DNA from: Escherichia phage fKMPT1
Direction: 5' to 3' (one strand)
DNA: 64,000 nt
Sequence record: PP620640
Positions 34,660 through 59,106 of the stretch are shown one piece after another. Every line of letters starts with the position of its first letter. Positions within the stretch are counted from its first letter, which is position 1. A program made the position numbers and the translations under genes. Below the pieces are notes generated by a model. It had not been told where the DNA came from, did not search any database, and saw only the letters and a program-made list of their open reading frames with translations.

Positions 34660-35403
34660 ATGAGTAGTATTATTGCATTTACTGGAAAGGCACGTTCTGG
34701 AAAAGACACCTCATGTTCTATTGTTAAGAATATTCTAGAAGATGAGTATGGCTACAATGTTGCAGTAATGGCCTATGCAGACAATCTTAAACTTTCTGCA
34801 TCAAAGATATTTGACTTGACTTGGAATGACCTGTACGGTGAAACTAAAGAAACTCCACAGGTTTTTGATTTATCATACTCTGAACTTATGCCTAAAGTTA
34901 CAGAAGCTATTGAGTTCACCTTCAAAGATGAACGTTACCATATGGACTTCAAGCTTATGTCAGAGTTAACCGGACGATTAATCATGGAGCTTAAGAAGGT
35001 TGCTAAACCAACTCTATTGACACGTCTGGGATTTAGCAAAAAGTATAAATTCTCATCAAGACAAATTCAACAGATTTGGGGAACTGAAGTTATCCGTAAA
35101 GTTATGGGTGACAAATTCTGGGCTAAAGACCTTGAAAAACGAATGGCTCGCTTCTTTGAATCTTGTTCACTTATGAGTCAAGAGGGTGTTGTTTTAATCA
35201 GTGACTTAAGGTTTGACTCTGAAGCTGAGTGGCTGAGTAGATTTGCACACCAGATTATTGAAGTAAAAAGAGACAATGTGGACAAGGTTTCATCACATGT
35301 TTCAGAAAATGGAATTTCTACCAAATATGCGCGTGACATTATCCATAATAATGGTACTCTTGCAGACCTTGAAAACAAGCTAAGAGCTATCCTGAAAATT
35401 TAA
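34660..35403 (+). CDS. Deoxynucleoside monophosphate kinase (T4 gp1-like)
   Basis: 247 aa; N-terminal P-loop IIAFTGKARSGKDT matching T4 dNMP kinase LIFLSGVKRSGKDT. Confidence 0.7.
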   Translation: MSSIIAFTGKARSGKDTSCSIVKNILEDEYGYNVAVMAYADNLKLSASKIFDLTWNDLYGETKETPQVFDLSYSELMPKVTEAIEFTFKDERYHMDFKLMSELTGRLIMELKKVAKPTLLTRLGFSKKYKFSSRQIQQIWGTEVIRKVMGDKFWAKDLEKRMARFFESCSLMSQEGVVLISDLRFDSEAEWLSRFAHQIIEVKRDNVDKVSSHVSENGISTKYARDIIHNNGTLADLENKLRAILKI

Positions 35404-35411: not shown

Positions 35412-35612
35412 ATGAAGATGAGAGTAAAAGATAATTTCAAAGTTATTGACCATCGTTTAGTGGAACTCTCATCTCTTTCCAATGAGGTAATGATTGAACG
35501 TCTTAAGAGAGTTGAATCACGAAGGAAAGAGATTGCAGATGAAGTCCATGAACTTGACAAGATTGAAAATGGATTGAAGGCAGAACTACAACGAAGAGGT
35601 GCTAATGTCTAA
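35412..35612 (+). CDS. Hypothetical small protein
   Basis: 66-aa ORF with coiled-coil character. Confidence 0.3.
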   Translation: MKMRVKDNFKVIDHRLVELSSLSNEVMIERLKRVESRRKEIADEVHELDKIENGLKAELQRRGANV

Positions 35613-37590
35613 AGGTCGTAAATTGAAAGAGGCTGGTCAGTTTATTGGTCATTGTGCGTGTCCACGTTGTGGTTCATCAGATGCTGGTTCAATCTATCAT
35701 CATGACGATGATTCTTATTCGATGACTTGCTTTAGTTGTAACAAAGGTTTCCCAGAGTGGGATTTTGATAAAGGACAAATCGTGAGCACTTATTCTACTG
35801 GTTCAGATAATAAAAACCGTACTTTCCGTGGAATGGATTTAGACGATGTAAAAGAAAACCTTGAAGCAATGGACTTGAAAGACAGGAAGATTCCTGCAAA
35901 AGTTCTTGAACGCTTAGGTATCAAGGTTGACATTGACAGTGATGGTGAAATTGATGCACATTTCTATCCGACTTACAAACGTAATGAAGATGGCAAGCTA
36001 GAACATGTTGGCTACCGTGTTCGTCACCGTTACCCAGAAGACCATCCAAAAGAACACCTACGTGGTAAACTAAAAGACTTTTCAGGTGGTGTTGGAGACA
36101 TTAAAGGCGAACTGGCAATGTTCGGTTCATGGATTGCTCCAGAAGGTGGCAATCGTCTATTCATCTGGGAAGGTGAGATGGAATGTGCTACAGCAATCTA
36201 CATGACTTCTCTGGCAATTAAAGATAAGTCTCGTCGTAAGAATTACTGTCACGTATCTGTTCCATCAGGTGCAAACATTAAGTCTATCAAAGACAACTAT
36301 CAGTATATCACATCATTTGATGAGATTTACTTGTGCTTTGATAACGATGAAGCAGGTGCTAAAGCTACCAAAGAGGCTGCTGGTATCCTGCCTATTGAGA
36401 AGGTTCGTTTATTCCAGTATCCAGAAGGTGTAAAAGACCTTAATGAATGGTGGACAAAGTTCTATAAAGAGAAAGACACAGTTCTGGAAGGATTTAAGCA
36501 GCGTATCTACAACGCACCTCGTTATTGCCCTGCTGGTATCAAGAACTTTGCAGATGGTTTTGAGGCAATGAAGAATCGTGGTCAGATTCCATTGATTCCT
36601 TTCCCAGAGTCTTTCGGGGATTTGAACAGACTGACTTATGGTGGTTACGGTTTAGGTGAGATTACAACTCTGGCAGCACCATCTTCAGTAGGTAAATCAG
36701 CGTACACCCGTGAAATGATTTACACTGCTTGGAAGGAAACCGATTATAATATTGGTGTAATTCCTGTAGAAGATACCTACGAAGAGTTGATGGAAATGCT
36801 CTGTGCAATTCACCTGAGCAAGCAGATTTCTGAGATTCCTTATGACGAACGTGATTGGGATGAATTGAAGGAAGCACACGCAGAGCTATCTAAAGGTCGT
36901 CGTATCCATATCGTTGACCATCAAGGGGCAATTGACCAAGATAACCTGCTGGAGTTTGTTGACTATCTTGTTAATAGTTTAGACTGTAAGATTATTATTC
37001 TTGACCCTATTACGTTGGCTCTGTCACGTTCTGATACGGATGAAGAGGAAGTATTGTCTGAACTATTGCGTCGTTGCAAACGCTACCAGTATGCGCAGGT
37101 AAACGTGTGTCACGTTCGTAAGAGTGCAGGTGGTCAGAAAGCCAACTCTGAAGGTGGAGATATCTCTGAAGAGGACATTAAAGGTTCTGGTGCGTATTTC
37201 CAGATTTCTATGAACAACATTCTGTTAATGCGTAACAAGGTTGACCCAGACCCTGTTAAGAAAAACTTGACAAAAATCAAGTTAACTAAGTGTCGTCGTC
37301 ATGGTAAGTCAACAGGTATTGCTGGTCACACTTGGTACAATCCAGACACAGGACGTCTTATCAAAGCTTCTGGATGTGGTGTTGATATTGATGGTGCAGC
37401 AGAAAATATTCGTCAACAGTTTGGTATTGGTGAAGCTGAAGACCATTACGATGACTCTTTACCTCATTATGAGGATGAAGTGTTTGACCGTGAGACTGGT
37501 GAAGTCTATACTGAAGAACAGCGTCAAAGCTCAACGATTCCACCTGTATTAAGTGAGGATGCAGATGACTGCCCGTTTGAAACTGAGTGA
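35599..37590 (+). CDS. Bifunctional DNA primase/helicase (T7 gp4-like)
   Basis: 663 aa; N-terminal Cys4 zinc ribbon CPRCGSSD...CFSCN, TOPRIM-like acidic segment (FDNDEAG), C-terminal DnaB-type helicase with Walker A AAPSSVGKS and Walker B IIILDP. Confidence 0.8.
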   Translation: MLMSKGRKLKEAGQFIGHCACPRCGSSDAGSIYHHDDDSYSMTCFSCNKGFPEWDFDKGQIVSTYSTGSDNKNRTFRGMDLDDVKENLEAMDLKDRKIPAKVLERLGIKVDIDSDGEIDAHFYPTYKRNEDGKLEHVGYRVRHRYPEDHPKEHLRGKLKDFSGGVGDIKGELAMFGSWIAPEGGNRLFIWEGEMECATAIYMTSLAIKDKSRRKNYCHVSVPSGANIKSIKDNYQYITSFDEIYLCFDNDEAGAKATKEAAGILPIEKVRLFQYPEGVKDLNEWWTKFYKEKDTVLEGFKQRIYNAPRYCPAGIKNFADGFEAMKNRGQIPLIPFPESFGDLNRLTYGGYGLGEITTLAAPSSVGKSAYTREMIYTAWKETDYNIGVIPVEDTYEELMEMLCAIHLSKQISEIPYDERDWDELKEAHAELSKGRRIHIVDHQGAIDQDNLLEFVDYLVNSLDCKIIILDPITLALSRSDTDEEEVLSELLRRCKRYQYAQVNVCHVRKSAGGQKANSEGGDISEEDIKGSGAYFQISMNNILLMRNKVDPDPVKKNLTKIKLTKCRRHGKSTGIAGHTWYNPDTGRLIKASGCGVDIDGAAENIRQQFGIGEAEDHYDDSLPHYEDEVFDRETGEVYTEEQRQSSTIPPVLSEDADDCPFETE

Positions 37591-37657
37591 TAGTTATAAA
37601 AGAGAGGGGTTTATACCCTTCTTTGAAGAAAAAAGTTTAAATAAATTTCAGGAAGAG

Positions 37658-37689
37658 TGTTTGACAAAGGTTGATAGGTTCTATAGAAT
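37658..37689 (+). promoter_or_regulatory. Promoter, TGTTTGACA-N17-TAGAAT
   Basis: -35 TTGACA 37661-37666 with upstream TGT, 17-bp spacer, -10 TAGAAT 37684-37689. Confidence 0.55.
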
Positions 37690-37842
37690 GCTCTACATGA
37701 AATGTGATGGAGGAGTTGAGGTTGAACAAAAGTCCCATCACAGTATAATAACAGTCACTATTACTATACCTCAACATAATATTGGTTGGCTGTTTATAAT
37801 TAAAGAAAATGTGTTTGAATATCAAGTATATCGGAGAATATC

Positions 37843-37992
37843 ATGAAACACTCTAAAGCATTTGAAAAAGTTTTTGGGGATTCCTTAAAAGCCACTGCTG
37901 GTAAACCAGCAAAATACTATGAAGAGAAGCGTGTAAGAACTGGAAAAACTGCACGTAAAGCAGCTTCTAAAGATAAGCACAACTTCCAGTAA
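37843..37992 (+). CDS. Small basic protein (49 aa), candidate
   Basis: ATG at 37843 preceded by GGAG; encodes MKHSKAFEKVFGDSLKATAGKPAKYYEEKRVRTGKTARKAASKDKHNFQ; below the ORF-track length cut-off. Confidence 0.3.
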   Translation: MKHSKAFEKVFGDSLKATAGKPAKYYEEKRVRTGKTARKAASKDKHNFQ

Positions 37993-37996
37993 TTAA

Positions 37997-38028
37997 TGTT
38001 TGACAATAGAGTATCAACAAATTAGAAT
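37997..38028 (+). promoter_or_regulatory. Promoter, TGTTTGACA-N17-TAGAAT, upstream of SSB gene
   Basis: -35 TTGACA 38000-38005, 17-bp spacer, -10 TAGAAT 38023-38028. Confidence 0.55.
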
Positions 38029-38064
38029 TGGTACTCTTCATAAATTGAGATAGAGGTTTAAATA

Positions 38065-38922
38065 ATGTCTAAAGTTGTTAAAATGAAAGCTCCGGTAGAG
38101 AAGTACAATGGTACTGAACGTCAAACTCTGCGTTACCTGCTGAAAGATGTTTGGTTTTATTACCTGAACACTTCACCACGTCCGGGAAAAGGTAAATCCA
38201 TTGATAAGAAATTCCCAGGCAAAGACTGTAACTACAGTGTTTCAATTCTGGCAGAAGATGGTAATAAACTATTTAAAGAGTTTACTAAGTCTAAGAAAAA
38301 CCCAGAAGGTTGGGATAAAGTTACTACTGAAGCAGTTGATGCAGATGACTTCGAAGAGAAGTTTGGTTGCAAACCACCATTTGAAGCAGACACTTACTAC
38401 ATCTTGAAAGTAAGTCGTGCAGCAGCTTATAAAGACGGTGCTGTGTGGACAGCTAAACAGTCATTCCCTGTAATGCTGATTGAAGAAGTAAATGGTAAGC
38501 GTGTAGCTGTTAAACAGCCGATGAAGAAAATCAAAGCTCAAGCATCTGACAAACATGAAGATGACAAGAACTATGATGTAATTCATCCAGATATTGCAGT
38601 TGGTAACGGTTCTTTTGGTAGTGTGATTCTGTCTACTCACTTCTACACTTTTGAGAACAATGTTCTGACAAAACCTATTCAGGAACAGTTTATCATTGAC
38701 ACTCTTGTACCTTACACTGGTGGTAACGGTGCTAACGGTGAACCTGAACTGGATGAAGACGAACTGGCTATGCTTGGTCTTGATGGTGTTGAAGATAACG
38801 GTGAAATCACTGAAGAAGACGCAAAAGACCACAAACCTTCTAATGATTCTGATGATGGTGACGATGAAGACTTGCCAGACCCAGATGACGAAGAAGATGA
38901 AGACTTCGATACAGAAGACTAA
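38065..38922 (+). CDS. Single-stranded DNA-binding protein (T7 gp2.5-like) candidate
   Basis: 285 aa with strongly acidic C-terminal tail DDGDDEDLPDPDDEEDEDFDTED; located in replication module after primase-helicase. Confidence 0.5.
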   Translation: MSKVVKMKAPVEKYNGTERQTLRYLLKDVWFYYLNTSPRPGKGKSIDKKFPGKDCNYSVSILAEDGNKLFKEFTKSKKNPEGWDKVTTEAVDADDFEEKFGCKPPFEADTYYILKVSRAAAYKDGAVWTAKQSFPVMLIEEVNGKRVAVKQPMKKIKAQASDKHEDDKNYDVIHPDIAVGNGSFGSVILSTHFYTFENNVLTKPIQEQFIIDTLVPYTGGNGANGEPELDEDELAMLGLDGVEDNGEITEEDAKDHKPSNDSDDGDDEDLPDPDDEEDEDFDTED

Positions 38923-38940
38923 TCTTTAAAAGTTACTTTA

Positions 38941-38968
38941 AAGCCCTGTACTTAGTATGGGGCTTTTT
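38941..38968 (+). terminator. Rho-independent terminator
   Basis: aagccct-loop-ggggctt hairpin followed by TTTTT. Confidence 0.55.
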
Positions 38969-38984
38969 CATATGGAGAGCCACA

Positions 38985-40025
38985 ATGGAGAAGTATACAC
39001 TAACAAAACTTCCCGATTCAGTTACACATGTCTTTATCGACTCTGACAGTATTGCCTATAAAGGTGCTTGTGTAGTTGAGAAAGCAAAATATAAGTATGT
39101 CAATAAACTCACAGCAGAAGAATCTGAACCATTTGATAATGCAAAAGATGCTGCAAGATGGTTAGCAGACCAGAGAATCCTTGTGGAAGAACTTGGCCTG
39201 ACATTTGATGAAGATGAATGGGAAAGACAGACTTGGAAAGAGGCTAAGAGTGAAAAAGAAGCTATCATGGCTACTCAGCAGGTTCTTCAGGAATGGCTTA
39301 AGGTTGTTGGTAAAGAAAGAACTTGGGTAGGTTATTTAACAGAGAAGGGTGTACATAAACATAAAGACATTAAAGGTCTTGAGCACCAATATCAAGGTAA
39401 CCGTAAAGATGCTGTCACACCAACACACTTAGTTGCTTGCCGTGAATATCTTCTGTCAAGACCAGAGTTTAAGCTTCTCCGTGGAGGATTTGAAGCCGAT
39501 TCCATCGTAATTGCTAAAGCTGAAAAGATGGGTAAGAAGGCCGCTCTTATGAGTATTGACAAAGACCTTCGACAAGCTGAAGGGACTTATTGTATTGATA
39601 TGACTTATGAAAAATCACCACTAATTTTTATCGCTGATAATAATGTTGGTAACATCTGGGATTGCCCTATCAAATCAAAACCAAAAGCTGCAAAAACAGT
39701 TGGTGTAGGTTTTAAATTCTTGTGTTATCAGGCTGTTGCTGGAGATAATGCAGATAACTACTTCGGTCTTAAAGGTGCTGGAAAAGTAGCTGTGATGAAT
39801 GCTTTAGATGGTAAAGAGACCTATAAAGAGTGCCTTGACGCTATCTATGAACTCTATGCTAAAAAAGAGTCTTACACCTATGTATCATGGGATGGGCAGA
39901 CTGTTACAAAAACACCATTAGAGTTAATGGAGCAGCATTTCTGGGTGGCATATCAAGAGAGAAATCCAAAAGATAATTTCTCTTTTAAGAAATATAATTG
40001 GGAGCCGTGTATGAATGAAGATTAA
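38985..40025 (+). CDS. 5'-3' exonuclease / flap endonuclease (FEN family)
   Basis: 346 aa; N-terminal FIDSDSIAYKG and helix-hairpin-helix-like GDNADNYFGLKGAGKVA resembling FEN/Pol I 5'-nuclease motifs. Confidence 0.6.
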   Translation: MEKYTLTKLPDSVTHVFIDSDSIAYKGACVVEKAKYKYVNKLTAEESEPFDNAKDAARWLADQRILVEELGLTFDEDEWERQTWKEAKSEKEAIMATQQVLQEWLKVVGKERTWVGYLTEKGVHKHKDIKGLEHQYQGNRKDAVTPTHLVACREYLLSRPEFKLLRGGFEADSIVIAKAEKMGKKAALMSIDKDLRQAEGTYCIDMTYEKSPLIFIADNNVGNIWDCPIKSKPKAAKTVGVGFKFLCYQAVAGDNADNYFGLKGAGKVAVMNALDGKETYKECLDAIYELYAKKESYTYVSWDGQTVTKTPLELMEQHFWVAYQERNPKDNFSFKKYNWEPCMNED

Positions 40026-40512
40026 AGGATTTGGCAATTGTCCCACCTATGGTCATTGGGTATCTTTGTGTGGGGAAGTTGACCCCACTAAACATTTTGG
40101 TTTTGTCTATTTAGTATACTGTAAGAAAACCGGACAATATTATATCGGAAAGAAACAGCTTAATAGTGTGACCAAAAGAAAAGTTGCTGGCAAGACTCGG
40201 AAGAAGGTAGTCACTAAGGAAAGTGATTGGATGACTTATGAGACTTCTTCTGAGTATGTTAAAAAAGATATTGAGAGCTTTGGAAAAGAATTTTTTGACT
40301 TTTACATTATTCAAACCTACTACACAAAAGGTGGTCTAGTTTATGGTGAAGCAAACCTTCAACATAAATTCGATGTAATGACAAAAAGGATTGACTCTAA
40401 GCTCAGACTCTTCTACAATGCCAACATTGCAGCAATTAAGTTTATCACTAAAGAAACTTATGAAGATGCTGAAAAAAGAATCCATAAGGTAATGAAAGCA
40501 AATTGTGCTTGA
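40015..40512 (+). CDS. GIY-YIG-like endonuclease (candidate free-standing homing endonuclease)
   Basis: 165 aa; GFVYLVYCKKTGQYYIGKK resembles the GIY-(10 aa)-YIG module; basic region follows. Confidence 0.35.
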   Translation: MKIKGFGNCPTYGHWVSLCGEVDPTKHFGFVYLVYCKKTGQYYIGKKQLNSVTKRKVAGKTRKKVVTKESDWMTYETSSEYVKKDIESFGKEFFDFYIIQTYYTKGGLVYGEANLQHKFDVMTKRIDSKLRLFYNANIAAIKFITKETYEDAEKRIHKVMKANCA

Positions 40513-40518
40513 TAACTA

Positions 40519-40782
40519 TTGAGAGAGAATAAAATGTTTAACAAAAGTAAAGCTGTGAGTCATGTAGCAAAAGTTGACAGCAAGATTGAAGAACTTGAGC
40601 GCATTCTTGCAAATGTCAGAGAGTCAATAATTAAAGAAGTTGAAGCTGTTGAATCTCAAATGCAGCACCTAATGCTTAAACGTCAAGAGCTACGTGAGCA
40701 TCTGGAATATATTGAAACACGAGAGCTAAAGGTTAACAGATATTTTAAGGAGTCCGAATGTTTAACTCAAGAGAATCAGTAA
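40519..40782 (+). CDS. Hypothetical coiled-coil protein
   Basis: 87-aa ORF. Confidence 0.35.
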   Translation: MRENKMFNKSKAVSHVAKVDSKIEELERILANVRESIIKEVEAVESQMQHLMLKRQELREHLEYIETRELKVNRYFKESECLTQENQ

Positions 40783-41513
40783 AAAACTGGAATCTTCGTT
40801 GTGGAAACACCCAAAAGCATCCTTACAGTGACGAGTATTGGGAATCTTTAAAGTCTCAATCTTTATGTATGCTTGAAGAAGCAAAAGAGCTTGTGAAGGC
40901 AATTGAAGAGAAAGACCCCATTGAGACACTGGATGCTCAGGCAGATTTGCAATATGTTCTTGATGGTTTGATTTACCTGTCACAACATGACCATAACGGT
41001 GCTATGAAAGCTGTTTGCCATAACAATGACCTGAAGTACACAGACGACTATGAAGAAGCTTTAAAACGTCTTGCAGATATTGAGAAGCGTACTGGTCAAG
41101 AGTGTATCATCAGAATGTCAGTAGTTGATGGCAAAGAATGGTATGCAATTGCTCGTGCAGCCGATGGGAAGATTATGAAGCAATCTAATCTCCCTAAAGT
41201 TCAGCTTGGTGAATACATTGTAGAACTTGAAAGCCAAGAACTTTTTGTGGTAGTATCTGACACATGCGTTATCTGCAAAGGTATTGTATGTAGCTTAAAG
41301 GATTTGGGTGTAGATGGTTTTGTAGAAGTTAATCCAATTACCTCTAAAGCAGATAAAGATTTCTGTAAAGAGAATGGACTATGGATTGCAGATATTGTCT
41401 ACTATGATGGTGAGCAGTTCCATGTAACCTCATACCCGAAACTTAATTATGATGCTAATAACCTGAAGTGCTGGTTAAAAGGGGTTGGTTATAATGGATT
41501 CACAGAACATTAA
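40758..41513 (+). CDS. MazG-like nucleotide pyrophosphohydrolase domain protein (candidate) with unknown C-terminal domain
   Basis: 251 aa; N-terminal EEAKELVKAIEEKDPIETLDAQADLQYVLDGL resembles the MazG EExxE...D helical motif. Confidence 0.35.
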   Translation: MFNSRESVKNWNLRCGNTQKHPYSDEYWESLKSQSLCMLEEAKELVKAIEEKDPIETLDAQADLQYVLDGLIYLSQHDHNGAMKAVCHNNDLKYTDDYEEALKRLADIEKRTGQECIIRMSVVDGKEWYAIARAADGKIMKQSNLPKVQLGEYIVELESQELFVVVSDTCVICKGIVCSLKDLGVDGFVEVNPITSKADKDFCKENGLWIADIVYYDGEQFHVTSYPKLNYDANNLKCWLKGVGYNGFTEH

Positions 41514-41817
41514 TAAAGAAGGTGTGGCTCAGAAGAGCCACTTCTCAAACTACAATATCTCTATGACGGTGTTTATGAATGACCCGTTACTTGAGAAGTA
41601 TGGTGAGACTCCAGATACACTTCTGGATAATGAACAAGTTTTAAAAGCAGTTCTGTACAAATACGGGATTGATATTGAGAAAGAGTATTCTTTTGAAATC
41701 TGTCAACACAGGAATACTTTTGGTAAAGTTGTAATGGCTCCACTCTTCATGGGTGTAGAAAGAACTGACTATGGTTGGTTATATCTAAAAAGAAACTTGG
41801 AGAAATACCGTGTCTAA
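41485..41817 (+). CDS. Hypothetical protein
   Basis: 110-aa ORF. Confidence 0.35.
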   Translation: MVIMDSQNINKEGVAQKSHFSNYNISMTVFMNDPLLEKYGETPDTLLDNEQVLKAVLYKYGIDIEKEYSFEICQHRNTFGKVVMAPLFMGVERTDYGWLYLKRNLEKYRV

Positions 41818-42148
41818 AGCAAAAAAGCTATCTTATGATGACATTATCTCAGGTGCTAAATTAGGTGTTGATAGTATCGGACAAGATGTTAAGCACGGAG
41901 ACACAGTTATGTACTGTGATGACCGAAGAGGGAGAAGTGCAATCTTGTTTGGAAGAATTGTTTGCAAGATGCGAGGTAATTACGTTGTTGCAGACATGGA
42001 TGTGAACGTTACACAAAAACTTGAAACACTTATGGATGATAATACATCATCATGGTTCTCCCTGAATTGTATGCACACTTCTTCAGTCACAAAAGTAAGT
42101 GATAAGTTTTACGATATGTGGCAGAATGAGCAAATTTTCAAGATTTAA
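41810..42148 (+). CDS. Hypothetical protein
   Basis: 112-aa ORF followed by terminator. Confidence 0.35.
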   Translation: MSKAKKLSYDDIISGAKLGVDSIGQDVKHGDTVMYCDDRRGRSAILFGRIVCKMRGNYVVADMDVNVTQKLETLMDDNTSSWFSLNCMHTSSVTKVSDKFYDMWQNEQIFKI

Positions 42149-42154
42149 ACTAGG

Positions 42155-42176
42155 GAGCCTCTTCGGAGGCTCTTTT
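42155..42176 (+). terminator. Rho-independent terminator (UUCG loop)
   Basis: gagcctc-ttcg-gaggctc hairpin followed by TTTT. Confidence 0.7.
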
Positions 42177-42194
42177 CATCTGTAGGATTTAAAA

Positions 42195-44429
42195 ATGATT
42201 AAGACAATTAAAAAATCAAACGGTACAGTAGTAAGCTTTGACCCAGAAAGACTGAATAAGTGGGCATCATGGGCAGATAAGCGTGGAATTATCTGGTCAG
42301 AAGTCACTATGGAAGCCATGAAGCGTGTCTATGAGGGTTGCACTACAAAAGAGATGCACCAAGCCATGATTGATGTTTGTGTTGATAAGCAAACTCAAGA
42401 GTACTCAGATATGGCTGGGCGGCTACTTCTGGGGATTATCTACAAAGAAGCCTTTGGAGGTTTTACTAAGGTTCCTACGCTGGTTACCTTCGTTAAAAAT
42501 ATGGAGAGAGCAGGACTTTGGGAGAAAATGGACTATTCTCAGGAAGAGCTTGAATATCTGCAAGGGTACATTGTGCACTCAAAAGATATCTCTTACGGTT
42601 ATGCAGTATTGAAACAGTTTAGAGACAAGTATGGTATCCGTGATATTAAAACGGGAAGACTTTTTGAGTCACCACAATTTATGTTTATGGGTATGGCTAT
42701 GAAAGCCTTCGAGAAGCAACCAAAGCACCGTAGGCTGCAAGATGTTATCAAGCTGTACACTTACCTATCTGACCTGAAGATTAACGCTCCTACGCCTTAT
42801 CTGAATGGTTTAAGAGCTACTAAATCAGGTTATGCGTCATGCTGTTTGATTAAGGCAAATGATACTGCCGAATCACTTGGTATTGCTGCAAAGGTTGCTT
42901 ATGATATGACTACAAAGCAAGCTGGTATTGGTATGCTTATGGAGACTCGCACTATTGGTGATGGTATCCGTCAAAACACGATTGAGCACATGGGTAAGCT
43001 GCCTTATTACAAGCTTGTACGTTCATCTGTAGAGGCAAATAAACAGAAGAGTCGTGGTGGTTCAGCTAACAACTTCTACACCGCTCTAGACCCGCAGATT
43101 GAAGATTTACTGCGTTTGAAGCACCCTACAACAGTTCCTTCGAAACGTATTAACGAGATGGACTACTCATTCGGTACAAATGATTATTTCTGGCAGTGTG
43201 TTCAGTATGATACAGATTGGTTGCTATTCTCTTACAAGGATGCACCAAAACTTTATGATATGTTCTACACCGCATCTGCTGATGAGTTTGCTATGGCAGT
43301 TGGTCACGCAGTACATTCTGGTGTTAAACACAGACGAGTAAAGGCTCGTGAAATTGCTAAACTGTTTATCCAGCAGCGTTACGCAACAGGTCGTGTGTAT
43401 CCATTCTTCACAAACAATGCAAACACACATACACCATTTAAAGAGCCTTTGAAGATGTCAAATCTGTGTATGGAAATTGTGTTGCCAGTATACGGCTTTG
43501 AGAAAGAGACAGACCTTTACAGAGATGATGCTGTGAAAGAGGATGGTGAGGTAGCTCTTTGCTTCCTAGCTAGTTTGGTTGCAGGGAGAATTTCAGAAGA
43601 TGAATACGCTGACGTTGCTTATTATGCTCTTGCAATGGTTGACTCCGTTATTGACCTTATGGATTATCCGTATCCGTCGATGCGCAACCATGTTCAGAAG
43701 CGTCGCTCTGTTGGTATTGGCCTTACAAATGTGGCTCATTACCTTGCGAAAAACTATGTGAACTATTCTTCAAGAGCAGGTAAGACAAAGCTTCATGAGC
43801 TTGCAGAGATGCACTCTTACTACTTACACGAAGCTTCTTTAAGACTTGCTAAAGAACGTGGTGTACCTGAGTATATGCAGTTCACTAAATATCCTGAAGG
43901 TTGGGTTCCTCCGAAGACAGCTAACAGGAAGATTGATGAAAAGCATGATGCAAAACTACGATATGATTGGGATGACTTAGCACAACGTATCAAAGAAAAT
44001 GGTGGAATCCGAAACTCTGTATTAGAAGCTTACATGCCTAATGAAAGTTCTTCACTAGCAACTAATACGACAAATGGCTTGTACCCAATTCGTGACTTTA
44101 TTTTAACTAAAAAGTCTGCAACTGGTAACGTACTGTTTATTGTTCCAGATTACGAAGAGTTGAAGTATGTCTATGAAATTGCTTGGGATATTGACACCTT
44201 TGACCTGATAGATTGTTATGCAATTGTTCAAAAGTTCACTGGTCAAGCTATCTCTTCAGATTTCTATGTTGACTATGCAAAGTCTAAGAAGGTATCATTG
44301 GCTCAAGCTCTGAAGTACATGATTTATGCCAACTCGGTAGGTATGAAAACCATGTACTACCTTAACAGTCGCATCGGTGTAGGTAAATCTGCACTGCAAG
44401 ATGCTTATTGCGAGGGTTGTGGTGTTTAG
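42195..44429 (+). CDS. nrdA: Ribonucleotide reductase class I large subunit
   Basis: 744 aa; N-terminal ATP-cone (IKTIKKSNGTVVSFDPERL), active-site region NLCMEIVLP, C-terminal Cys pair CEGCGV. Confidence 0.85.
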   Translation: MIKTIKKSNGTVVSFDPERLNKWASWADKRGIIWSEVTMEAMKRVYEGCTTKEMHQAMIDVCVDKQTQEYSDMAGRLLLGIIYKEAFGGFTKVPTLVTFVKNMERAGLWEKMDYSQEELEYLQGYIVHSKDISYGYAVLKQFRDKYGIRDIKTGRLFESPQFMFMGMAMKAFEKQPKHRRLQDVIKLYTYLSDLKINAPTPYLNGLRATKSGYASCCLIKANDTAESLGIAAKVAYDMTTKQAGIGMLMETRTIGDGIRQNTIEHMGKLPYYKLVRSSVEANKQKSRGGSANNFYTALDPQIEDLLRLKHPTTVPSKRINEMDYSFGTNDYFWQCVQYDTDWLLFSYKDAPKLYDMFYTASADEFAMAVGHAVHSGVKHRRVKAREIAKLFIQQRYATGRVYPFFTNNANTHTPFKEPLKMSNLCMEIVLPVYGFEKETDLYRDDAVKEDGEVALCFLASLVAGRISEDEYADVAYYALAMVDSVIDLMDYPYPSMRNHVQKRRSVGIGLTNVAHYLAKNYVNYSSRAGKTKLHELAEMHSYYLHEASLRLAKERGVPEYMQFTKYPEGWVPPKTANRKIDEKHDAKLRYDWDDLAQRIKENGGIRNSVLEAYMPNESSSLATNTTNGLYPIRDFILTKKSATGNVLFIVPDYEELKYVYEIAWDIDTFDLIDCYAIVQKFTGQAISSDFYVDYAKSKKVSLAQALKYMIYANSVGMKTMYYLNSRIGVGKSALQDAYCEGCGV

Positions 44430-44442
44430 TTTTAATAACTAT

Positions 44443-44462
44443 GAGGGTCGTAAAAGACCCTC
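44443..44462 (+). other. Perfect 7-bp hairpin downstream of nrdA without T-tract
   Basis: gagggtc-gtaaaa-gaccctc; followed by TAAAATT rather than a U-run. Confidence 0.3.
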
Positions 44463-44484
44463 TAAAATTAACTTTGGAGAAACT

Positions 44485-44742
44485 ATGAAAGATTTGATAG
44501 CGAATCACGAATGGCCCATATACTTGCTCCACAAACCTCGGAAAACGATGTACTATGTGAGTAGCACAGACATGATGATAAAACAAAATGATGACTCATG
44601 GGTCGAGGGTGTCTCTTACATCTCTACAGCAGATGGTAAAATCTATGCAAGACCTTATGACATGTTTAACAAAGAAAATTGGGAAGTTTTAGACAGAAAA
44701 CAAGCCTTAGAGATGATAAAGAAAGGAGAAATCACACTATGA
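44485..44742 (+). CDS. Hypothetical protein
   Basis: ORF re-started at internal ATG 44485 preceded by GGAG; track start 44401 overlaps nrdA. Confidence 0.35.
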   Translation: MKDLIANHEWPIYLLHKPRKTMYYVSSTDMMIKQNDDSWVEGVSYISTADGKIYARPYDMFNKENWEVLDRKQALEMIKKGEITL

Positions 44743-45812
44743 TTAACCAACACCCAATCTTTTTAGGTGGTGAGAGAAAGACATTTGACTCACTTAACAA
44801 GCACTACCCAAAAATCTTTGAACTCTATAAACAACAAAAAGCACAAGACTGGTCAGAAGATGAGTTCCCTTTTGAACAATCACGTCTTGATTTTGAGAGT
44901 GTGCCAGCATCAATGTCAGGTGTAATGCTTGAGATTCTTAAGTGGCAGTGGGAAGCAGATACCCAAGTTGCTAAGAGTTTAGCGTTTGCTTTTGCACCAT
45001 TCATCTCTGATGACATTTATGCAACTGCAATTATGAAGCAGTCTGAGATTGAAAACCTACATGCTCTTACTTACTCAGAGATTGTAAGGCAATGTATTAA
45101 AAATCCTGAGACAATCTTAGATGAGATTAACCAGAACGTTGCTGTACAAGACCGATTAAAAACTGTGAATCGTGTTCTTGAAGAATTACTGGATGAAGGT
45201 ATAAACTATCGGCTGAGTTATGTCCGTGACTCACTTCTGGACAAAGACCCTTTACACTTCCATAAAGTGATTCTAAAAGGTCTATTTGCAGTGACTGCAC
45301 TTGAAGGTATTTCTTTTATGGCATCCTTTGCATGTACTTTTGCACTTGATGCTCAAGATAAATTTCAGGGTATTGCTCAAGCTGTCCAGAAAATTATGCT
45401 TGATGAAATTCTTCACACTAAAATTGATATTGAAGTTTTAAAAGAAACTTTAAGAGATGATGAGTGGCAAAAAGCTTTCCAACAAATTCTTCCAGAGATT
45501 AAAGTAATCTTAGATGAAGTAGTTGAAAGTGAAGAAAAATGGTCGTATTATATCTTCTCCGAAGGACGTGCTGTAGTTGGTTTAAATACAAAGCTTCTTC
45601 ATGAGTGGGTTTACTATAATGCTGCCCCACTGTATGATATGTTTGGCATTCCCAGAGATTTTGTAGCTCCTAAAGAACCACCTTTGAAGTATATGATTAA
45701 GAAGATGGAAATTGATAAAGAGCAGAATGCTAATCAGGAGCAACAGAACGGTGCGTACTTATTGAATACTGTTGTAGATGATTTGAATAGTGGATTTTTA
45801 GAGGTTCCTTAA
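44739..45812 (+). CDS. nrdB: Ribonucleotide reductase class I small subunit
   Basis: Start taken at ATG 44739 (MINQHPIF) preceded by AAGGAG; ferritin-like helical protein with ExxH-type segments (MLDEILHTKID); adjacent to nrdA. Confidence 0.7.
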   Translation: MINQHPIFLGGERKTFDSLNKHYPKIFELYKQQKAQDWSEDEFPFEQSRLDFESVPASMSGVMLEILKWQWEADTQVAKSLAFAFAPFISDDIYATAIMKQSEIENLHALTYSEIVRQCIKNPETILDEINQNVAVQDRLKTVNRVLEELLDEGINYRLSYVRDSLLDKDPLHFHKVILKGLFAVTALEGISFMASFACTFALDAQDKFQGIAQAVQKIMLDEILHTKIDIEVLKETLRDDEWQKAFQQILPEIKVILDEVVESEEKWSYYIFSEGRAVVGLNTKLLHEWVYYNAAPLYDMFGIPRDFVAPKEPPLKYMIKKMEIDKEQNANQEQQNGAYLLNTVVDDLNSGFLEVP

Positions 45813-46054
45813 TGACTTATGTAATTTACTCCAAAACTGGATGCCCTCAGTGTGAGACTGCAAAGAATTTTGCAAAAGCTCGTGGTATTGACCATGTTGT
45901 GAGAATGTTAGGGCAGGATTATGAACTGTCAGACCTGATGGATATTGCACAGATGCCAGTTCGTCAGATGCCATTCATCATGAAGACTGATGGTCAAAAT
46001 CTAAAACCTGTTGGGACGCTACAGAATTTTATGGCAGAGGTGAATAATGCTTAA
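45812..46054 (+). CDS. Glutaredoxin-like protein (NrdC/NrdH-type RNR reductant)
   Basis: 80 aa; N-terminal CPQC redox motif (KTGCPQCETAK); follows nrdB. Confidence 0.65.
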   Translation: MTYVIYSKTGCPQCETAKNFAKARGIDHVVRMLGQDYELSDLMDIAQMPVRQMPFIMKTDGQNLKPVGTLQNFMAEVNNA

Positions 46055-46253
46055 ACGCCTTTGGGAAGGTTTGGTTGTTGATGCACCAGCCATTGTGATT
46101 GGTATGCTTGTTGTTAACCTATTTACTGATTTTGAACAAGGTTCATTGTTTGGAGCCATGCTATTATGGGTTATCTTTGAAATATTAGAGATACAGCTAG
46201 GCATCACTGAAAAACTAAGAAAACTCGTTTCAAAGTTTTCTAAAAAGATTTAA
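46047..46253 (+). CDS. Small membrane protein
   Basis: 68 aa with two hydrophobic helices. Confidence 0.35.
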   Translation: MLKRLWEGLVVDAPAIVIGMLVVNLFTDFEQGSLFGAMLLWVIFEILEIQLGITEKLRKLVSKFSKKI

Positions 46254-46258
46254 AATGA

Positions 46259-46282
46259 AAGGGTCTCTTCGGAGACCTTTTT
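46259..46282 (+). terminator. Rho-independent terminator (UUCG loop)
   Basis: ggtctc-ttcg-gagacc hairpin followed by TTTTT. Confidence 0.7.
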
Positions 46283-46301
46283 AGCATGTAAAGGGGCAAT
46301 A

Positions 46302-48446
46302 ATGAACAAAGTACAGATTATTAAAAAGAATGGCTCACTTGAAGAACCTGATATCAAAAAAGTTTTAGCAGCAGTAACTAAGTCAGCTAATAGGGTTGGG
46401 TATAAAGAACTCCCACCAGATGTTACCCAAGCTCTTGAGTCAGCATTCATGAGGATTCTGGTGAAGTCCACTAAGCAGAATAATTTGCTCATCTCGGTAA
46501 ATGACATTCACAGTATTGTTGAGGGTGCTTTGGCAGAAGTCAATCACGAGATTTACGAGTCTTACTCAACATATAGAAATTACCGTAAAGAGGTTGCTCA
46601 AAATTGGGATGAGCTTTACCAAAAGACTAGAGACACACTCTTCTTAGGTGACCGTGAAAATGCTAACTTTGACAGCAGTTTAATCTCTACAAAAGGCTCA
46701 ATTATTCGTGGTTATCTGACTAAAGAAATCTTTAAACAGTACCATTTAACACCAGAAGAACTCGAAGCCATTGAACAAGGGTTTATCTACATCCATGACT
46801 TAAGAGACCTAATTTTTGGTGGTATTAACTGTTGCTTGTTTGACATTGGTAAAGTACTGAAAGGTGGCTTTGAAATGTCTGGCATCGAATACTGTGAACC
46901 GAAGTCTGTACTGTCAGCCTTACAAGTCATCGGTGATGTAGTTCTTTCAGCAACTGCACAGCAATTTGGTGGCTTTACTTTAGCAGAGATTGATAAGGTA
47001 CTTGTACCGTATGCTAAGAAGTCTCTACGCTATCATGCTGAGAAAGCAGCATCTTACGGTATTCCTAAAGAACATTACCATAACTATGTCATGGAGCAGC
47101 TACAGATTGAATTAACTCAAGGCTTCCAGTCACTAGAGATGAAGCTAAATACTGTACCTTGTAGCCGTGGTGATTTCGCATTCACAACTTTAACATTTGG
47201 GTTGCTCGACTCAGATATGTCTAATGAAGACAACAGACTGCAATACATGATTGCAAGTACTCTCCTAGATGTTCGTATGAATGGGCAAGGTAAGAGCAAA
47301 AAACCTGTTGTATTCCCTAAACTGGTTTATATCTACGACCAGAAGAGACATGATGAAAATATCTGTCAAGGTCACCTGTACAGTAAAGCTATCGAGTGTT
47401 GCTCTAAAGCAATGTATCCAGATTTCTTAAGTGTATCTGGTCACGGTGCTGTAGCAGAGGCTTTTGAGCGTTCTGGTAAGGTAATTTCACCGATGGGTTG
47501 CAGAGCTTTCTTGTCTCCATATCTTAACGATGATGGGGAAGAGTTCTACGTTGGTCGTGCTAACATTGGTGCTGTGTCTTTGAACTTGCCAATGATTTAC
47601 CAGTATTCTAAAGAGAATGGTTTAGATTTCTGGAAAGAGCTTGATAAGTACCTAGAGATGATTCGCAGCTTCCACAAGAAACGCTACGAAATGATTGCTA
47701 ATATGCCAGCAAGTTCTAACCCTCTTGCATTCACACAAGGTGGTCTGTACAAAGGTACTAAGAAATCTACTGACAAGGTTGGCTGGGATATCGTGAAGTC
47801 CTTCACAGCTTCTTTTGGGGTTACTGCACTTGATGAGTTATCTGTTCTTGCTGAAGGTAAACGACTTCATGAAGTTGGAAGCTATAGTTTCGCATACGAT
47901 GTTCTGGCATACATCAACATGAAAACTGAAGAGTTTAAAAATGAAGATGGCTTCTTATATGCTGTCTATGGTACTCCAGCAGAATCACTTTGTGGAACTC
48001 AGCTAAAACAGTTCAGAGATATGTTTGGCGTTATTAAAGGCGTTTCTGACAAGGAATACTTCACAAACAGTTTTCATATGAATGTTGCAGCAGACATCTC
48101 ACCATTTGAGAAGCAGGACTTAGAAGAGCCATTCTTCCATATCTGTAGAGGCGGTAGAATCCAGTATGTAAGGGTAGCTAACCCAGAAAACTTAACAGCA
48201 CTTAAAAGTTGTATTACAAGAGGGATGTTGAAGGGTTTTTATCAGGGACTTAACTTTGACTTAGCAATCTGTGAACATTGTGGTAGCAGACCAAAGGCTG
48301 ATGTTGAAGAATGTGAGGTTTGCCATTCACATGATATCTCTGTGATTAACAGGGTGTGCGGGTACTTGGGGTGGACTAAGATTAAAGGTGAATCCCGAAT
48401 GAATGATGCAAAAATTGCTGAGATTCGTGATAGAGTATCTATGTAA
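46302..48446 (+). CDS. nrdD: Anaerobic ribonucleoside-triphosphate reductase
   Basis: 714 aa; N-terminal ATP-cone, C-terminal zinc ribbon CEHCGS...CEVC and glycyl-radical motif RVCGYLG. Confidence 0.85.
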   Translation: MNKVQIIKKNGSLEEPDIKKVLAAVTKSANRVGYKELPPDVTQALESAFMRILVKSTKQNNLLISVNDIHSIVEGALAEVNHEIYESYSTYRNYRKEVAQNWDELYQKTRDTLFLGDRENANFDSSLISTKGSIIRGYLTKEIFKQYHLTPEELEAIEQGFIYIHDLRDLIFGGINCCLFDIGKVLKGGFEMSGIEYCEPKSVLSALQVIGDVVLSATAQQFGGFTLAEIDKVLVPYAKKSLRYHAEKAASYGIPKEHYHNYVMEQLQIELTQGFQSLEMKLNTVPCSRGDFAFTTLTFGLLDSDMSNEDNRLQYMIASTLLDVRMNGQGKSKKPVVFPKLVYIYDQKRHDENICQGHLYSKAIECCSKAMYPDFLSVSGHGAVAEAFERSGKVISPMGCRAFLSPYLNDDGEEFYVGRANIGAVSLNLPMIYQYSKENGLDFWKELDKYLEMIRSFHKKRYEMIANMPASSNPLAFTQGGLYKGTKKSTDKVGWDIVKSFTASFGVTALDELSVLAEGKRLHEVGSYSFAYDVLAYINMKTEEFKNEDGFLYAVYGTPAESLCGTQLKQFRDMFGVIKGVSDKEYFTNSFHMNVAADISPFEKQDLEEPFFHICRGGRIQYVRVANPENLTALKSCITRGMLKGFYQGLNFDLAICEHCGSRPKADVEECEVCHSHDISVINRVCGYLGWTKIKGESRMNDAKIAEIRDRVSM

Positions 48447-48454
48447 AACTTGAC

Positions 48455-48494
48455 AAGGTGGTGTGGGTCTTGGTAGGCTTACATCACCTTTTTT
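48455..48494 (+). terminator. Rho-independent terminator
   Basis: aaggtggtgt / acatcacctt 10-bp stem (one G-U) with 16-nt loop followed by TTTTTT. Confidence 0.55.
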
Positions 48495-48508
48495 ATTGGA
48501 GTTGCATT

Positions 48509-48853
48509 ATGGGCTTATGGCTTTATGTAGCAGTTGGTGGACTTGCATGTGTTATAATCTTAGTTGTTCTTGGAGTAATGCGATTCAAAGACATCATACG
48601 GTCAGATTTTTGGCCTGATTTTATTTTAAAATCTGTAGCAGTTGTGGTCATTATACTTTGTGTTTTTGTTGTGTACTACGCATATAAAACTATAATATGG
48701 ATGGACACAAGCAACTGTGTAAAAACCTCTCAACATCGTGAAGTTACCTACTTTGTAAGTGTGTTAAGTGGGAGCACCACTATACTTGTTCCACAAACTT
48801 CTGTAGAGTATCTTTACACATGTGATAATGGTAAAACTATATGGTGGAATTAA
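48509..48853 (+). CDS. Membrane protein
   Basis: Start moved to ATG 48509 after GGAG; multiple hydrophobic helices. Confidence 0.35.
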   Translation: MGLWLYVAVGGLACVIILVVLGVMRFKDIIRSDFWPDFILKSVAVVVIILCVFVVYYAYKTIIWMDTSNCVKTSQHREVTYFVSVLSGSTTILVPQTSVEYLYTCDNGKTIWWN

Positions 48854-49056
48854 CAATGACAACACTCTTAAAGGTATTGACACCCATACTACACATAGCA
48901 ATCTTCTTCTTTGGTGTTAGTGTTATGGTGTGGGGTTTTTCAGACCCACAATGGGGTTTCTCATATCATGGTCAGATGGATTTATGGTCATGCTTCAAAC
49001 CATTCTTAGGGTTAGCTATAGCATTCAGTGCATTACCAACTAAGGTGAAATTATGA
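48841..49056 (+). CDS. Small membrane protein
   Basis: 71-aa hydrophobic ORF. Confidence 0.3.
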   Translation: MVELTMTTLLKVLTPILHIAIFFFGVSVMVWGFSDPQWGFSYHGQMDLWSCFKPFLGLAIAFSALPTKVKL

Positions 49057-49448
49057 TTAAGTTGAACAAAAAACAGCTAGAGTGGATTAAAGATTACGCC
49101 TCAGAGTGTGGCTCTTGCGAAAAGAATCACGTAAGATATTCAGCATTCCATACGACCTTCACATTGTACATCAGTGACAACGTTCTAAGTGATTCCGTAG
49201 AAGATGGTGTAGCGTTGCCTAATGAATTACTTGATAAATTAGCTATAGTCACTGGAACTTGGTCTGAAGAAGACGGTCATGAATTATTTGACAATGTTGT
49301 CTTCTACAGTCTTGAAAACATTATGAATCCAGAGTACATTATGCTAATGACTTGTGCACAAGACTGTGTGCCATTACAAAACTTCATTAAAGAGCACTGT
49401 GAAGAGTTTATTACTAAACAGGTTCCTTGTCAGGTGGTGTTTGAATGA
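49053..49448 (+). CDS. Hypothetical protein
   Basis: 131-aa ORF. Confidence 0.35.
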   Translation: MIKLNKKQLEWIKDYASECGSCEKNHVRYSAFHTTFTLYISDNVLSDSVEDGVALPNELLDKLAIVTGTWSEEDGHELFDNVVFYSLENIMNPEYIMLMTCAQDCVPLQNFIKEHCEEFITKQVPCQVVFE

Positions 49449-49744
49449 GTAAAACAATTCGAAGAAAAGGTTTAAAGAACGTTCATGGACTTTATGAGTG
49501 GAGAAATGAGGTACGTAACAGAGAAAATGCTTCAGAGGTCTACTACCACTCTGATATGATGTCCAGAAAAGGTGGCTCTTACGACTTCACAAGTCAGCCT
49601 TGTAGAGAGATTAAGAAGGCTACTAAACGTCTTACAAGAACACAAATAAGGCAGCTTTCTAAGACATCCTACTTAGATGAAGACTTTGACATTGATAGTA
49701 AGTCTCCAAAGAAAGCTGCTCAGAGCACTTATATGTATTGGTGA
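49445..49744 (+). CDS. Hypothetical protein
   Basis: 99-aa ORF. Confidence 0.35.
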   Translation: MSKTIRRKGLKNVHGLYEWRNEVRNRENASEVYYHSDMMSRKGGSYDFTSQPCREIKKATKRLTRTQIRQLSKTSYLDEDFDIDSKSPKKAAQSTYMYW

Positions 49745-49753
49745 GGTAACTAG

Positions 49754-50239
49754 ATGAATTACATGGAGATTCGGCCATTTGACACAGCTAATGGTGAAGG
49801 GGTTCGTGTAAGCCTCTTTGTAGCTGGTTGTAAGCACCACTGTGAAGGCTGCTTTAACAGGGAATCTTGGAAGTTTAATGCTGGTAAAGAGTTTACTTAT
49901 GCAAACCTCTACGGCATCATTAAGTTAATGGATGATGAGGCCATCAGTGGTTTGTCAATACTTGGTGGAGAACCTCTGGATGATAGAAATATTCAAGAGG
50001 TTACCAACATATGCAAACGTATTAAAACTGTTTATCCAGAAAAGTCTATATGGCTTTGGACTGGTTTTCAACTGCACGAAAAAATCCACTTAGATGTAAT
50101 GAAATATGTTGACGTGGTGATTGATGGTAAGTATGATTCATCTAAACCAACAGTTAAACCATATCGTGGTTCTGATAACCAAAACCTCTGGAGAAAAGAG
50201 TATGGGTGGCAAGGTGATTGTCAATGGCGAGCAGAATGA
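49754..50239 (+). CDS. nrdG: Anaerobic ribonucleotide reductase activating protein (radical SAM)
   Basis: 161 aa; radical-SAM Cys triad CKHHCEGC; in same block as nrdD. Confidence 0.75.
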   Translation: MNYMEIRPFDTANGEGVRVSLFVAGCKHHCEGCFNRESWKFNAGKEFTYANLYGIIKLMDDEAISGLSILGGEPLDDRNIQEVTNICKRIKTVYPEKSIWLWTGFQLHEKIHLDVMKYVDVVIDGKYDSSKPTVKPYRGSDNQNLWRKEYGWQGDCQWRAE

Positions 50240-59071: not shown

Positions 59072-59073
59072 AG

Positions 59074-59106
59074 TGTTTGACAAGGGGCTTCAAAGCCCCT
59101 TAGAAT
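59074..59106 (+). promoter_or_regulatory. Promoter, TGTTTGACA-N18-TAGAAT with GC hairpin in spacer
   Basis: -35 TTGACA 59077-59082; spacer aggggcttcaaagcccct (palindromic); -10 TAGAAT 59101-59106. Confidence 0.5.

Follow-up and report, generated by a model that had tools for sequence, protein, structure and literature searches.

In this study, we analysed the first 64 kb of the ~87-kb genome of Escherichia phage fKMPT1 (PP620640), a stretch of 64,000 nt that we refer to as the window, with a focus on its replication and nucleotide-metabolism genes. An earlier note on this DNA had described a mosaic around positions 35599-50239, where a replisome resembling that of phage T7 is combined with nucleotide genes resembling those of phage T4, among them two classes of ribonucleotide reductase (RNR). 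We found that this combination is real but ordinary, and that it has been known since 2010. The stretch is almost certainly the early/middle block of conserved genes from a Felix O1-like myovirus, in which a replisome of T7 design and a deoxynucleoside triphosphate (dNTP) supply of T4 kind form an old and vertically inherited set.

The placement of fKMPT1 in a single genus is the basis of this reading. When positions 35599-50239 were compared by megablast with 50,697 phage records, these 14.6 kb proved 100% identical, at equal coordinates, to Salmonella phage fBSPA4 (OR711204.1). In total, 263 records match the region, 242 of them over at least 80% of its length, and the best-place identities are nearly all between 80 and 99%. 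The matches come from phages of Salmonella, Escherichia, Shigella and Citrobacter; several carry the name Felixounavirus, and many Felixounavirus records are 94-96% identical across the 14.6 kb. On a larger scale, 89% of the interval 21.6-56.6 kb of the window aligns with Felix O1 (NC_005282), with a mean nucleotide identity of 92.3%, while the genus threshold of the International Committee on Taxonomy of Viruses is about 70% nucleotide identity over the genome length. Moreover, all 13 of the 13 comparable replication and nucleotide proteins are syntenic with their Felix O1 counterparts and 85-100% identical to them. Indeed, gene order and strands in the window equal those annotated in Felix O1, namely thymidylate synthase (td), dihydrofolate reductase (frd), ligase, HNH, polymerase, deoxynucleoside monophosphate (dNMP) kinase, primase-helicase, ORF104, exonuclease, MazG, nrdA, nrdB, glutaredoxin, nrdD, nrdG, PRPP synthetase and nadV. 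On both identity and gene order, fKMPT1 is assigned to the genus Felixounavirus (subfamily Ounavirinae).

The gene content itself has been described before. The Felix O1 genome paper of 2010 lists the nrdABDG-glutaredoxin cluster, td, frd, the dNMP kinase and rIIA/B, and already likens the polymerase and the primase-helicase to those of T7-like podoviruses (PMC3185647). A later comparative paper describes the replication/nucleotide gene backbone as common to Felixounaviruses (PMC8300805). The earlier note had stated that the mosaic would be ordinary if one well-known phage genus supplied the same nearest neighbours for every gene. Since the 13 proteins are syntenic and highly identical to those of a genome published in 2010, this is what we observe, and the claim of a noteworthy mosaic is not supported. 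As a discovery the combination carries little weight: it is published for Felix O1, it is genus-wide, and both of its parts are widespread in virulent phages. The window also differs from Felix O1. ORF106, an HNH gene located between the exonuclease gene and the GIY-YIG-like gene in Felix O1, is missing, and the small open reading frames (ORFs) between nrdD and nrdG, as well as those at 51.6-53.5 kb, are not the same.

All of the genes named in the earlier note exist, are intact and are included in the GenBank annotation of OR711204.1, but only about half of them lie inside 35599-50239, which runs from the primase-helicase gene through nrdG. The td, frd, ligase, polymerase and dNMP kinase genes are located upstream (23.6-35.4 kb) and rIIA/B downstream (56.7-60.3 kb); in the annotation of OR711204.1, genes for PRPP synthetase and NadV lie downstream of nrdG. 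The key catalytic motifs are intact in NrdD, NrdG, glutaredoxin, the ligase and the primase-helicase. Altogether, these genes encode a complete, self-sufficient and compact replisome of T7 design, composed of a family A polymerase, a fused primase-helicase, a single-stranded DNA-binding protein (SSB) of gp2.5 type, a nuclease of gp6 type and an ATP ligase. The dNTPs would be provided by NrdAB and glutaredoxin in aerobic cells and by NrdD/NrdG in anaerobic cells, dTMP would come from Td and Frd, and dNMPs would be phosphorylated by a gp1-type kinase, with a MazG-like pyrophosphatase in addition.

The T7 label of the replication genes was found to suit the polymerase, the primase-helicase, the SSB and the exonuclease, but not specifically the ligase. 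The primase-helicase gene (35605-37590, plus strand) encodes Toprim_2 and DnaB_C domains (residues 223-281 and 336-494 in Pfam) and matches phrog_239 with an E-value of 5.5e-185. In a search of the PDB, it matches T7 gp4 structures (E=1.3e-40), and the alignment to full-length T7 gp4 spans residues 149-592. The protein also has a Cys4 zinc motif at residues 19-45 (CxxC at 19 and 42), a P-loop that reads SSVGKS and an acidic C-terminus (...DADDCPFETE). With a zinc ribbon, a TOPRIM domain and a DnaB-type helicase in a single chain, it is predicted to be a bifunctional primase-helicase of T7 gp4 type. Its nearest relatives in phages outside the subfamily are found in PAK_P1/KPP10-type Pseudomonas myoviruses, at ~28% identity.

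The exonuclease gene (38985-40025, plus strand) had been proposed to encode a flap endonuclease (FEN), and our results bear this out. As a single sequence, the protein returned nothing from Pfam at E<=0.01 and nothing meaningful from a phmmer search of the PDB. Its family profile, on the other hand, matches the 5'-nuclease domain of Taq (E=6.6e-8) and T5 FEN (E=0.006), and hhalign aligns it with T7 gp6 at a probability of 96% (E=4.7e-9). Among 24 homologues, PF01367 is matched by 19 and PF02739 by 5. The invariant acidic residues are all present (D19, D21, E170, D172, D192, D194, D254 and D257). The protein is thus predicted to be a 5'-3' flap endonuclease/exonuclease of T7 gp6 type.

The ATP-dependent DNA ligase (366 aa; 27649-28749, minus strand) matches Pfam DNA_ligase_A_M and phrog_114. 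It has the general architecture of ATP ligases, with KxDG at residue 116 and a weak Pfam match, under the cutoff, for the OB domain. Among solved structures, it is closest to PDB 6imj/6imk and to the ligase of PBCV-1 (Chlorella virus). The similarity to T7 ligase is not significant by BLASTP (E=2.2), and T7 ligase is not among the PDB matches. We therefore dropped the label "T7-like ligase".

The earlier note had read the 285-aa ORF at 38065-38922 (plus strand) as an acidic-tailed SSB. This ORF is "hypothetical" in OR711204.1, and PHROG 3877, to which it belongs, lists its function as unknown. Among 60 sampled records, 52 are annotated at the match; 51 of these 52 give it no function (hypothetical, "unknown" or a gp number without a name), and the remaining one calls it primase/helicase. 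As for the exonuclease, the single sequence gave nothing in Pfam at E<=0.01 and nothing meaningful in a phmmer search of the PDB. An alignment of nine sequences of the family made a poor model, with an hhalign probability of only 6% against T7 gp2.5. An exhaustive profile search recovered 70 relatives, mostly 200-240 aa in length, and of 10 intermediate homologues, six match phrog_3877 as well as phrog_112 ("Gp2.5-like ssDNA binding protein"). A profile of 46 sequences then aligned with T7 gp2.5 at a probability of 93.6% (E=2.2e-7). Taking Pfam Enc34_ssDNA-bd (formerly DUF2815) and phrog_112 as references for the gp2.5 family, the 285-aa protein matches the gp2.5-type OB-fold. Its tail reads ...DSDDGDDEDLPDPDDEEDEDFDTED (end ...EDEDFDTED), with a Phe that is invariant in nine homologues, and in the predicted structure the pLDDT is <50 over most of residues 243-275, which suggests a disordered acidic C-terminal tail. 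The profile, the phrog_112 links and the acidic tail with its Phe all argue for the earlier assignment, and we predict that the ORF encodes an SSB of the T7 gp2.5 family. The Ounavirinae SSB, hitherto held in a PHROG of unknown function, would thus become assignable to a family. Our literature search found no published gp2.5-type SSB in Felix O1-like phages, and Lopes et al. 2010 make no mention of Felix O1 in their main text.

Other observations concern this gene and its surroundings. In Yersinia phage vB_YenM_P778 (hereafter P778), the SSB homologue is labelled a methyltransferase. Upstream of the SSB gene in fKMPT1, there are two promoter-like sites (37661-37689 and 38000-38028, plus strand) with identical elements, TTGACA and TAGAAT separated by 17 nt (11/12 matches). 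Sigma-70-like sites in the region number 55, compared with 47.8 +/- 6.3 in shuffled sequence. As this is no excess, we make no claims on operon structure.

The polymerase gene is where annotation and gene structure diverge. The whole interrupted gene for the family A DNA polymerase occupies 30138-33125 (minus strand). Exon 1 spans 30962-33125 (minus strand), and exon 2 (30138-30694, minus strand) covers positions 218-380 of the 381 of the Pfam DNA_pol_A profile. The exon 2 match scores 34.4 bits for a cutoff of 34.3, while that of exon 1 is weak and under the cutoff. The exons are separated by an ORF-less intron of 267 nt (30695-30961, minus strand), which lies inside polymerase motif B and scores 59.9 bits against Rfam RF00028 (gathering score 50). 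Felix O1 is without an intron in this gene; relative to it, the intron is an exact 267-nt insertion whose removal restores the reading frame. Joining the exons yields a product of 906 aa, which shares 98.3% identity with the polymerase of Felix O1, encoded there without interruption. The splice junction falls between KNGIYA and LLFGAGDEK, as in the continuous Felix O1 sequence, and motif B reads KNGIYALLFGAGDEK. Exon 1 closes with ...GCGT, so that a T (U) precedes the 5' splice site, and the last bases of the intron are ...CAGATG, with a terminal G. [quoted passage not shown] The best solved relative of the protein is T7 gp5 (E=2.7e-11, residues 711-903), and this alignment crosses the splice junction. 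With 906 aa, the polymerase is longer than T7 gp5 (704 aa), the insertions being located in the N-terminal two thirds. Its nearest phage relative outside the subfamily is that of an Alteromonas myovirus (31%).

In OR711204.1, the polymerase is annotated as two separate coding sequences, each named "putative DNA polymerase", because the group I intron went unrecognised; annotation as two genes concerns this phage and about one in three of its relatives. The intron occurs in about 96 phage records, either in the ORF-less form or in a ~800-nt form with an 'endonuclease VII'-type ORF. Group I introns are well known in phage polymerase genes (PMC3984707, PMC3428280), and Felix O1 itself was reported to be intron-free (PMC3185647). 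Our search of the literature for a polymerase intron in Felixounavirus returned only a passing remark, in the paper on the Felixounavirus SPJ41, on "two introns" in that phage. The position of the intron also differs from what is found in T4, which has introns in td, nrdB and nrdD; these three genes are uninterrupted here, and it is the polymerase gene that is split. Felix O1-type phages serve in Salmonella diagnostics and biocontrol, which gives a correct annotation of their replication genes a modest applied value.

A free-standing endonuclease gene with HNH_3 and AP2 domains (29653-30156, minus strand) shares 19 nt with the 3' end of the polymerase gene, and it is also found in the intron-less Felix O1, as ORF95. 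An ORF-less intron beside such a gene recalls, by analogy, 'collaborative homing', an arrangement reviewed in PMC3984707.

The acidic tails raise the question of how this replisome is held together. When the window was translated in all six frames, two ORFs alone among those with 60 aa or more were found to terminate in an acidic tail that bears F-[DE]-T-[DE], namely the primase-helicase (C-terminus at 37560-37590) and the SSB (C-terminus at 38890-38922). The tails of the P778 counterparts read ...EEFETD for the SSB and ...KQFSTT for the primase-helicase. In T7, the gp2.5 and gp4 tails dock on the T7 polymerase. T7 gp2.5 ends in ...DGDF and T7 gp4 in ...DTDF, with Phe as the last residue, whereas in fKMPT1 the Phe is followed by three or four further residues (FDTED and FETE). 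By analogy with T7, the SSB and the primase-helicase would dock on the polymerase through their acidic tails, and both tails would compete for a single docking site on the 906-aa protein, thereby coordinating leading- and lagging-strand synthesis. Felix O1-like myoviruses may therefore hold a T7-style replisome together by the tail-docking trick of T7, a proposal to which we give nearly an even chance. If true, the T7 coupling mechanism would be an ancient module common to podoviruses and a large lineage of myoviruses.

The nucleotide genes form a complete counterpart to the T4 list. The td gene (23580-24479, minus strand) matches Pfam Thymidylat_synt (E=5.5e-73) and its product is 98.7% identical at the amino acid level to that of Felix O1; frd (24481-25026, minus strand) matches DHFR_1 (E=8.4e-22) and is 85% identical. 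The dNMP kinase of T4 gp1 type (34660-35403, plus strand) matches Pfam DNMK (E=1.5e-22; 80.8 bits for a cutoff of 27.1), and T4 gp1 (1DEK) is its sole match in the PDB. The MazG-like nucleotide pyrophosphohydrolase (40758-41513, plus strand) matches PRA-PH (E=1.1e-5) and phrog_2144 (E=1.8e-101). Outside the dNTP pathways, rIIA (56705-59071, plus strand; phrog_612, E=2.5e-189) and rIIB (59151-60260, plus strand; phrog_609, E=5e-89) are adjacent (56705-60260) and homologous to the T4 pair.

As the earlier note had stated, both RNR classes are encoded, with their motifs intact. For class Ia, the large subunit NrdA (42195-44429, plus strand) matches Pfam Ribonuc_red_lgC (E=3.9e-91) and lgN, and ends in CEGCGV; its ATP-cone match is under the Pfam cutoff, and E. 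coli NrdA structures are retrieved with an E-value of 1.7e-126. The small subunit NrdB (44739-45812, plus strand) matches Ribonuc_red_sm (E=1.9e-34) and is 100% identical to Felix O1 NrdB. The glutaredoxin gene (45812-46054, plus strand; Pfam Glutaredoxin, E=4.4e-7) encodes a CPQC active site at residue 11. Glutaredoxin is likely the reductant for NrdAB, as was likewise inferred in Felix O1 (PMC3185647). With NrdA, NrdB and a redoxin partner, the phage is predicted to possess a class Ia RNR.

For class III, the anaerobic NrdD (46302-48446, plus strand) matches Pfam NRDD (E=5.6e-114) and ATP-cone (E=6.9e-12). Its Gly_radical match is weak and just under the cutoff, RVCGY is found at residue 684, and CxxC motifs occur at 657 and 671. 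Solved NrdDs, including that of T4, match it with E-values of 1e-75 to 1e-76. Its activase NrdG (49754-50239, plus strand) matches Fer4_12 (E=2.5e-43) and Radical_SAM, with a CX3CX2C motif (CKHHCEGC) at residue 26. A glycyl-radical NrdD with its zinc site and a radical-SAM NrdG together indicate a predicted class III RNR. It is reasonable to think that, with two classes, the phage can synthesise dNTPs whether its enteric host is oxygenated or anoxic, which is the standard reading. Among phage genomes that bear RNRs, 27% have class I and class III together, and most of this group come from phages of facultative anaerobes (PMC3653736); the association of class Ia with class III in fKMPT1 is thus typical of such phages.

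Several features of the nrdD locus stand apart from these assignments. The gene is uninterrupted in the window and split by a ~740-nt insertion in many relatives (for example VSe102, phiWec177, Alf5 and nataliec); in the annotation of VSe102, this insertion contains an HNH endonuclease. The nrdD-nrdG spacer (48447-49753) holds variable small ORFs and aligns only in part to Felix O1. A strong terminator-like hairpin (48455-48490), with a T run behind its 16-bp stem, is located just 3' of the nrdD stop codon. A plus-strand ORF (48458-48853) matches phrog_8826 (E=2.4e-30) from residue 48 on. OR711204.1 instead annotates a 42-aa minus-strand ORF at 48523-48651, which is probably a miscall.

How the T7 and T4 resemblances arose is the point on which explanations differ. 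A recent mosaic, where a replication module from a T7-like podovirus and a nucleotide module from a T4-like myovirus were joined by recombination, could be read from two facts: the gene list matches T7 in replication and T4 in nucleotide metabolism, and, among solved structures, T7 proteins come closest to the polymerase and the primase-helicase. We consider such an origin extremely improbable. The likeness to T7 lies in the family A polymerase, the fused primase-helicase, the gp6-type FEN and the Phe-bearing acidic tails on the SSB and the primase-helicase, while the identity to T7 is only 21-28% (polymerase 23%, primase-helicase 28%, exonuclease 21%), and the ligase is unrelated to T7 ligase at the BLASTP level. 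T7 is moreover a 40-kb podovirus, whereas fKMPT1 is a ~87-kb myovirus. As for T4, the shared gene list (td, frd, gene 1, nrdA/B/C, nrdD/G and rIIA/B) stands, but the sequence affinity suggested by the term "T4-like" does not. Identities range from 24 to 46% (td 34-36%, frd 30%, dNMP kinase 24%, NrdA 31%, NrdB 25%, NrdD 29-30%, NrdG 46%, rIIB 41%, and rIIA 32% over the N-terminal 300 aa), a range in which T4 is no closer than E. coli K-12. In T4-type phages, NrdD aligns only from about residue 92-118 on, whereas the NrdD of the window has an N-terminal ATP-cone. Furthermore, among the ORFs that we examined in a non-exhaustive search, we saw no homologue of a T4-type family B polymerase, clamp or clamp loader. 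The nearest relatives outside the subfamily are other myoviruses and neither T7 nor T4, and the layout is fixed in ~260 genomes as well as in the 60-68%-identical relative P778. Finally, the G+C content is even throughout the window (0.37-0.42), and we looked in it for a compositional island at the nrd cluster and found none. Neither identity nor G+C thus gives any sign of a recent exchange with T7 or T4, and a recent mosaic is not borne out.

A recent capture of nrdAB, nrdDG, td and frd from an enterobacterial host is hardly more probable. For the phage NrdA, the best match among solved structures is E. coli NrdA, and the hosts have the same two RNR classes. Nevertheless, we rejected this possibility, as identities to E. 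coli K-12 are only 24-40% overall (NrdA 33%, NrdD 30%, NrdG 40%, ThyA 32% and FolA 32%), while homologues in Vibrio phage ICP1 and in a 145-kb coliphage are far closer (49-55%). Indeed, outside the subfamily, the nearest NrdAs are those of the ~145-kb coliphage AV124 (55%) and ICP1 (49%), and the nearest NrdDs those of ICP1 (53.5%) and an Aeromonas phage (50%), with T4-like phages at ~30%. In addition, these genes have a phage-like G+C content of 38-41%, compared with ~50% in the hosts (PMC3185647). A host origin far back in time, for the phage RNR clade as a whole, is a different matter and is conceivable.

In our view, the resemblance to T7 and T4 is best described as an ancient similarity at the level of protein families. 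ICP1 pairs a gp4-type primase-helicase with class I and class III RNRs, as here, and is among the matches for the primase-helicase (24%) and the polymerase in addition to those for NrdD and NrdA. T5-like phages share the set of RNR, td and frd genes, with NrdA 37% and NrdD 29% identical. The genomes of ICP1 and of T5-like phages are larger (110-150 kb), and their genes are far more diverged. Felix O1, PAK_P1/KPP10-like phages, rV5-like phages and ICP1 have been described as one distantly related group of myoviruses (PMC4309531).

Comparison with P778 (53 kb, positions 37349-90106) provides a view of the wider lineage. P778 retains the polymerase, primase-helicase, SSB, exonuclease, ligase, td, dNMP kinase, nrdD, nrdG and rIIA/B genes in unchanged order. 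Its primase-helicase is 68% identical to that of the window, and from there identities drop smoothly to 33%, with no outlier that would suggest a recent transfer. NrdA, NrdB, glutaredoxin and Frd gave no tblastn match in these 53 kb and are absent from its annotation. These observations suggest a stepwise assembly, in which an ancestral core made of the T7-type replisome with nrdDG, td, the dNMP kinase and rII was joined by nrdA-nrdB-glutaredoxin and frd in Felixounavirus, or lost them in the branch of the Yersinia phage. Such a history would refine the vertical inheritance that we propose and is not opposed to it; we hold it to be possible, although somewhat doubtful. In its favour, NrdA is found at 60-80% identity in only 3 phage records, compared with 44 for the primase-helicase, and NrdA relatives outside the subfamily are 49-55% identical, compared with 28-31% for the polymerase and the primase-helicase. 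However, the P778 comparison starts only after the first 37 kb of that genome, a loss in P778 fits the data equally well as a gain in Felixounavirus, and the Erwinia phages phiEa104 and phiEa21-4 appear in the legend of the nrdA/B trees of a published survey (PMC3653736), which indicates that other relatives have class I genes.

Old vertical inheritance of the whole block remains our preferred explanation, and some observations weigh against it. The ligase does not suit the T7 label. In the wider lineage, nrdA, nrdB, glutaredoxin and frd are not universal and may represent a separate gain or loss. Beyond the subfamily, the polymerase is nearest to that of an Alteromonas myovirus and the RNR genes to those of ICP1 and the 145-kb coliphage, and the modules may have partly different deep histories.

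Some minor features of the window deserve mention. ARAGORN detected zero tRNA genes in the 64 kb. As Felix O1 was reported with 22 tRNA genes (PMC3185647), they presumably lie in the remaining 23 kb of the genome, past the window. The 107-aa ORF at 41494-41817 (plus strand) matches phrog_4007 and also phrog_3506 (E=4e-12), which is labelled 'thymidylate synthase', although the ORF is far too short for one. The 165-aa ORF at 40015-40512 (plus strand) matches Pfam SegE_GIY-YIG (E=2.4e-27), while it is called 'NAD synthetase' in the RefSeq record of Felix O1 and in PHROG 447, a label that is probably a propagated misannotation. P778 holds a homologue in the same position, annotated as a GIY-YIG homing endonuclease, and this shared position suggests a fixed rather than a mobile nuclease.

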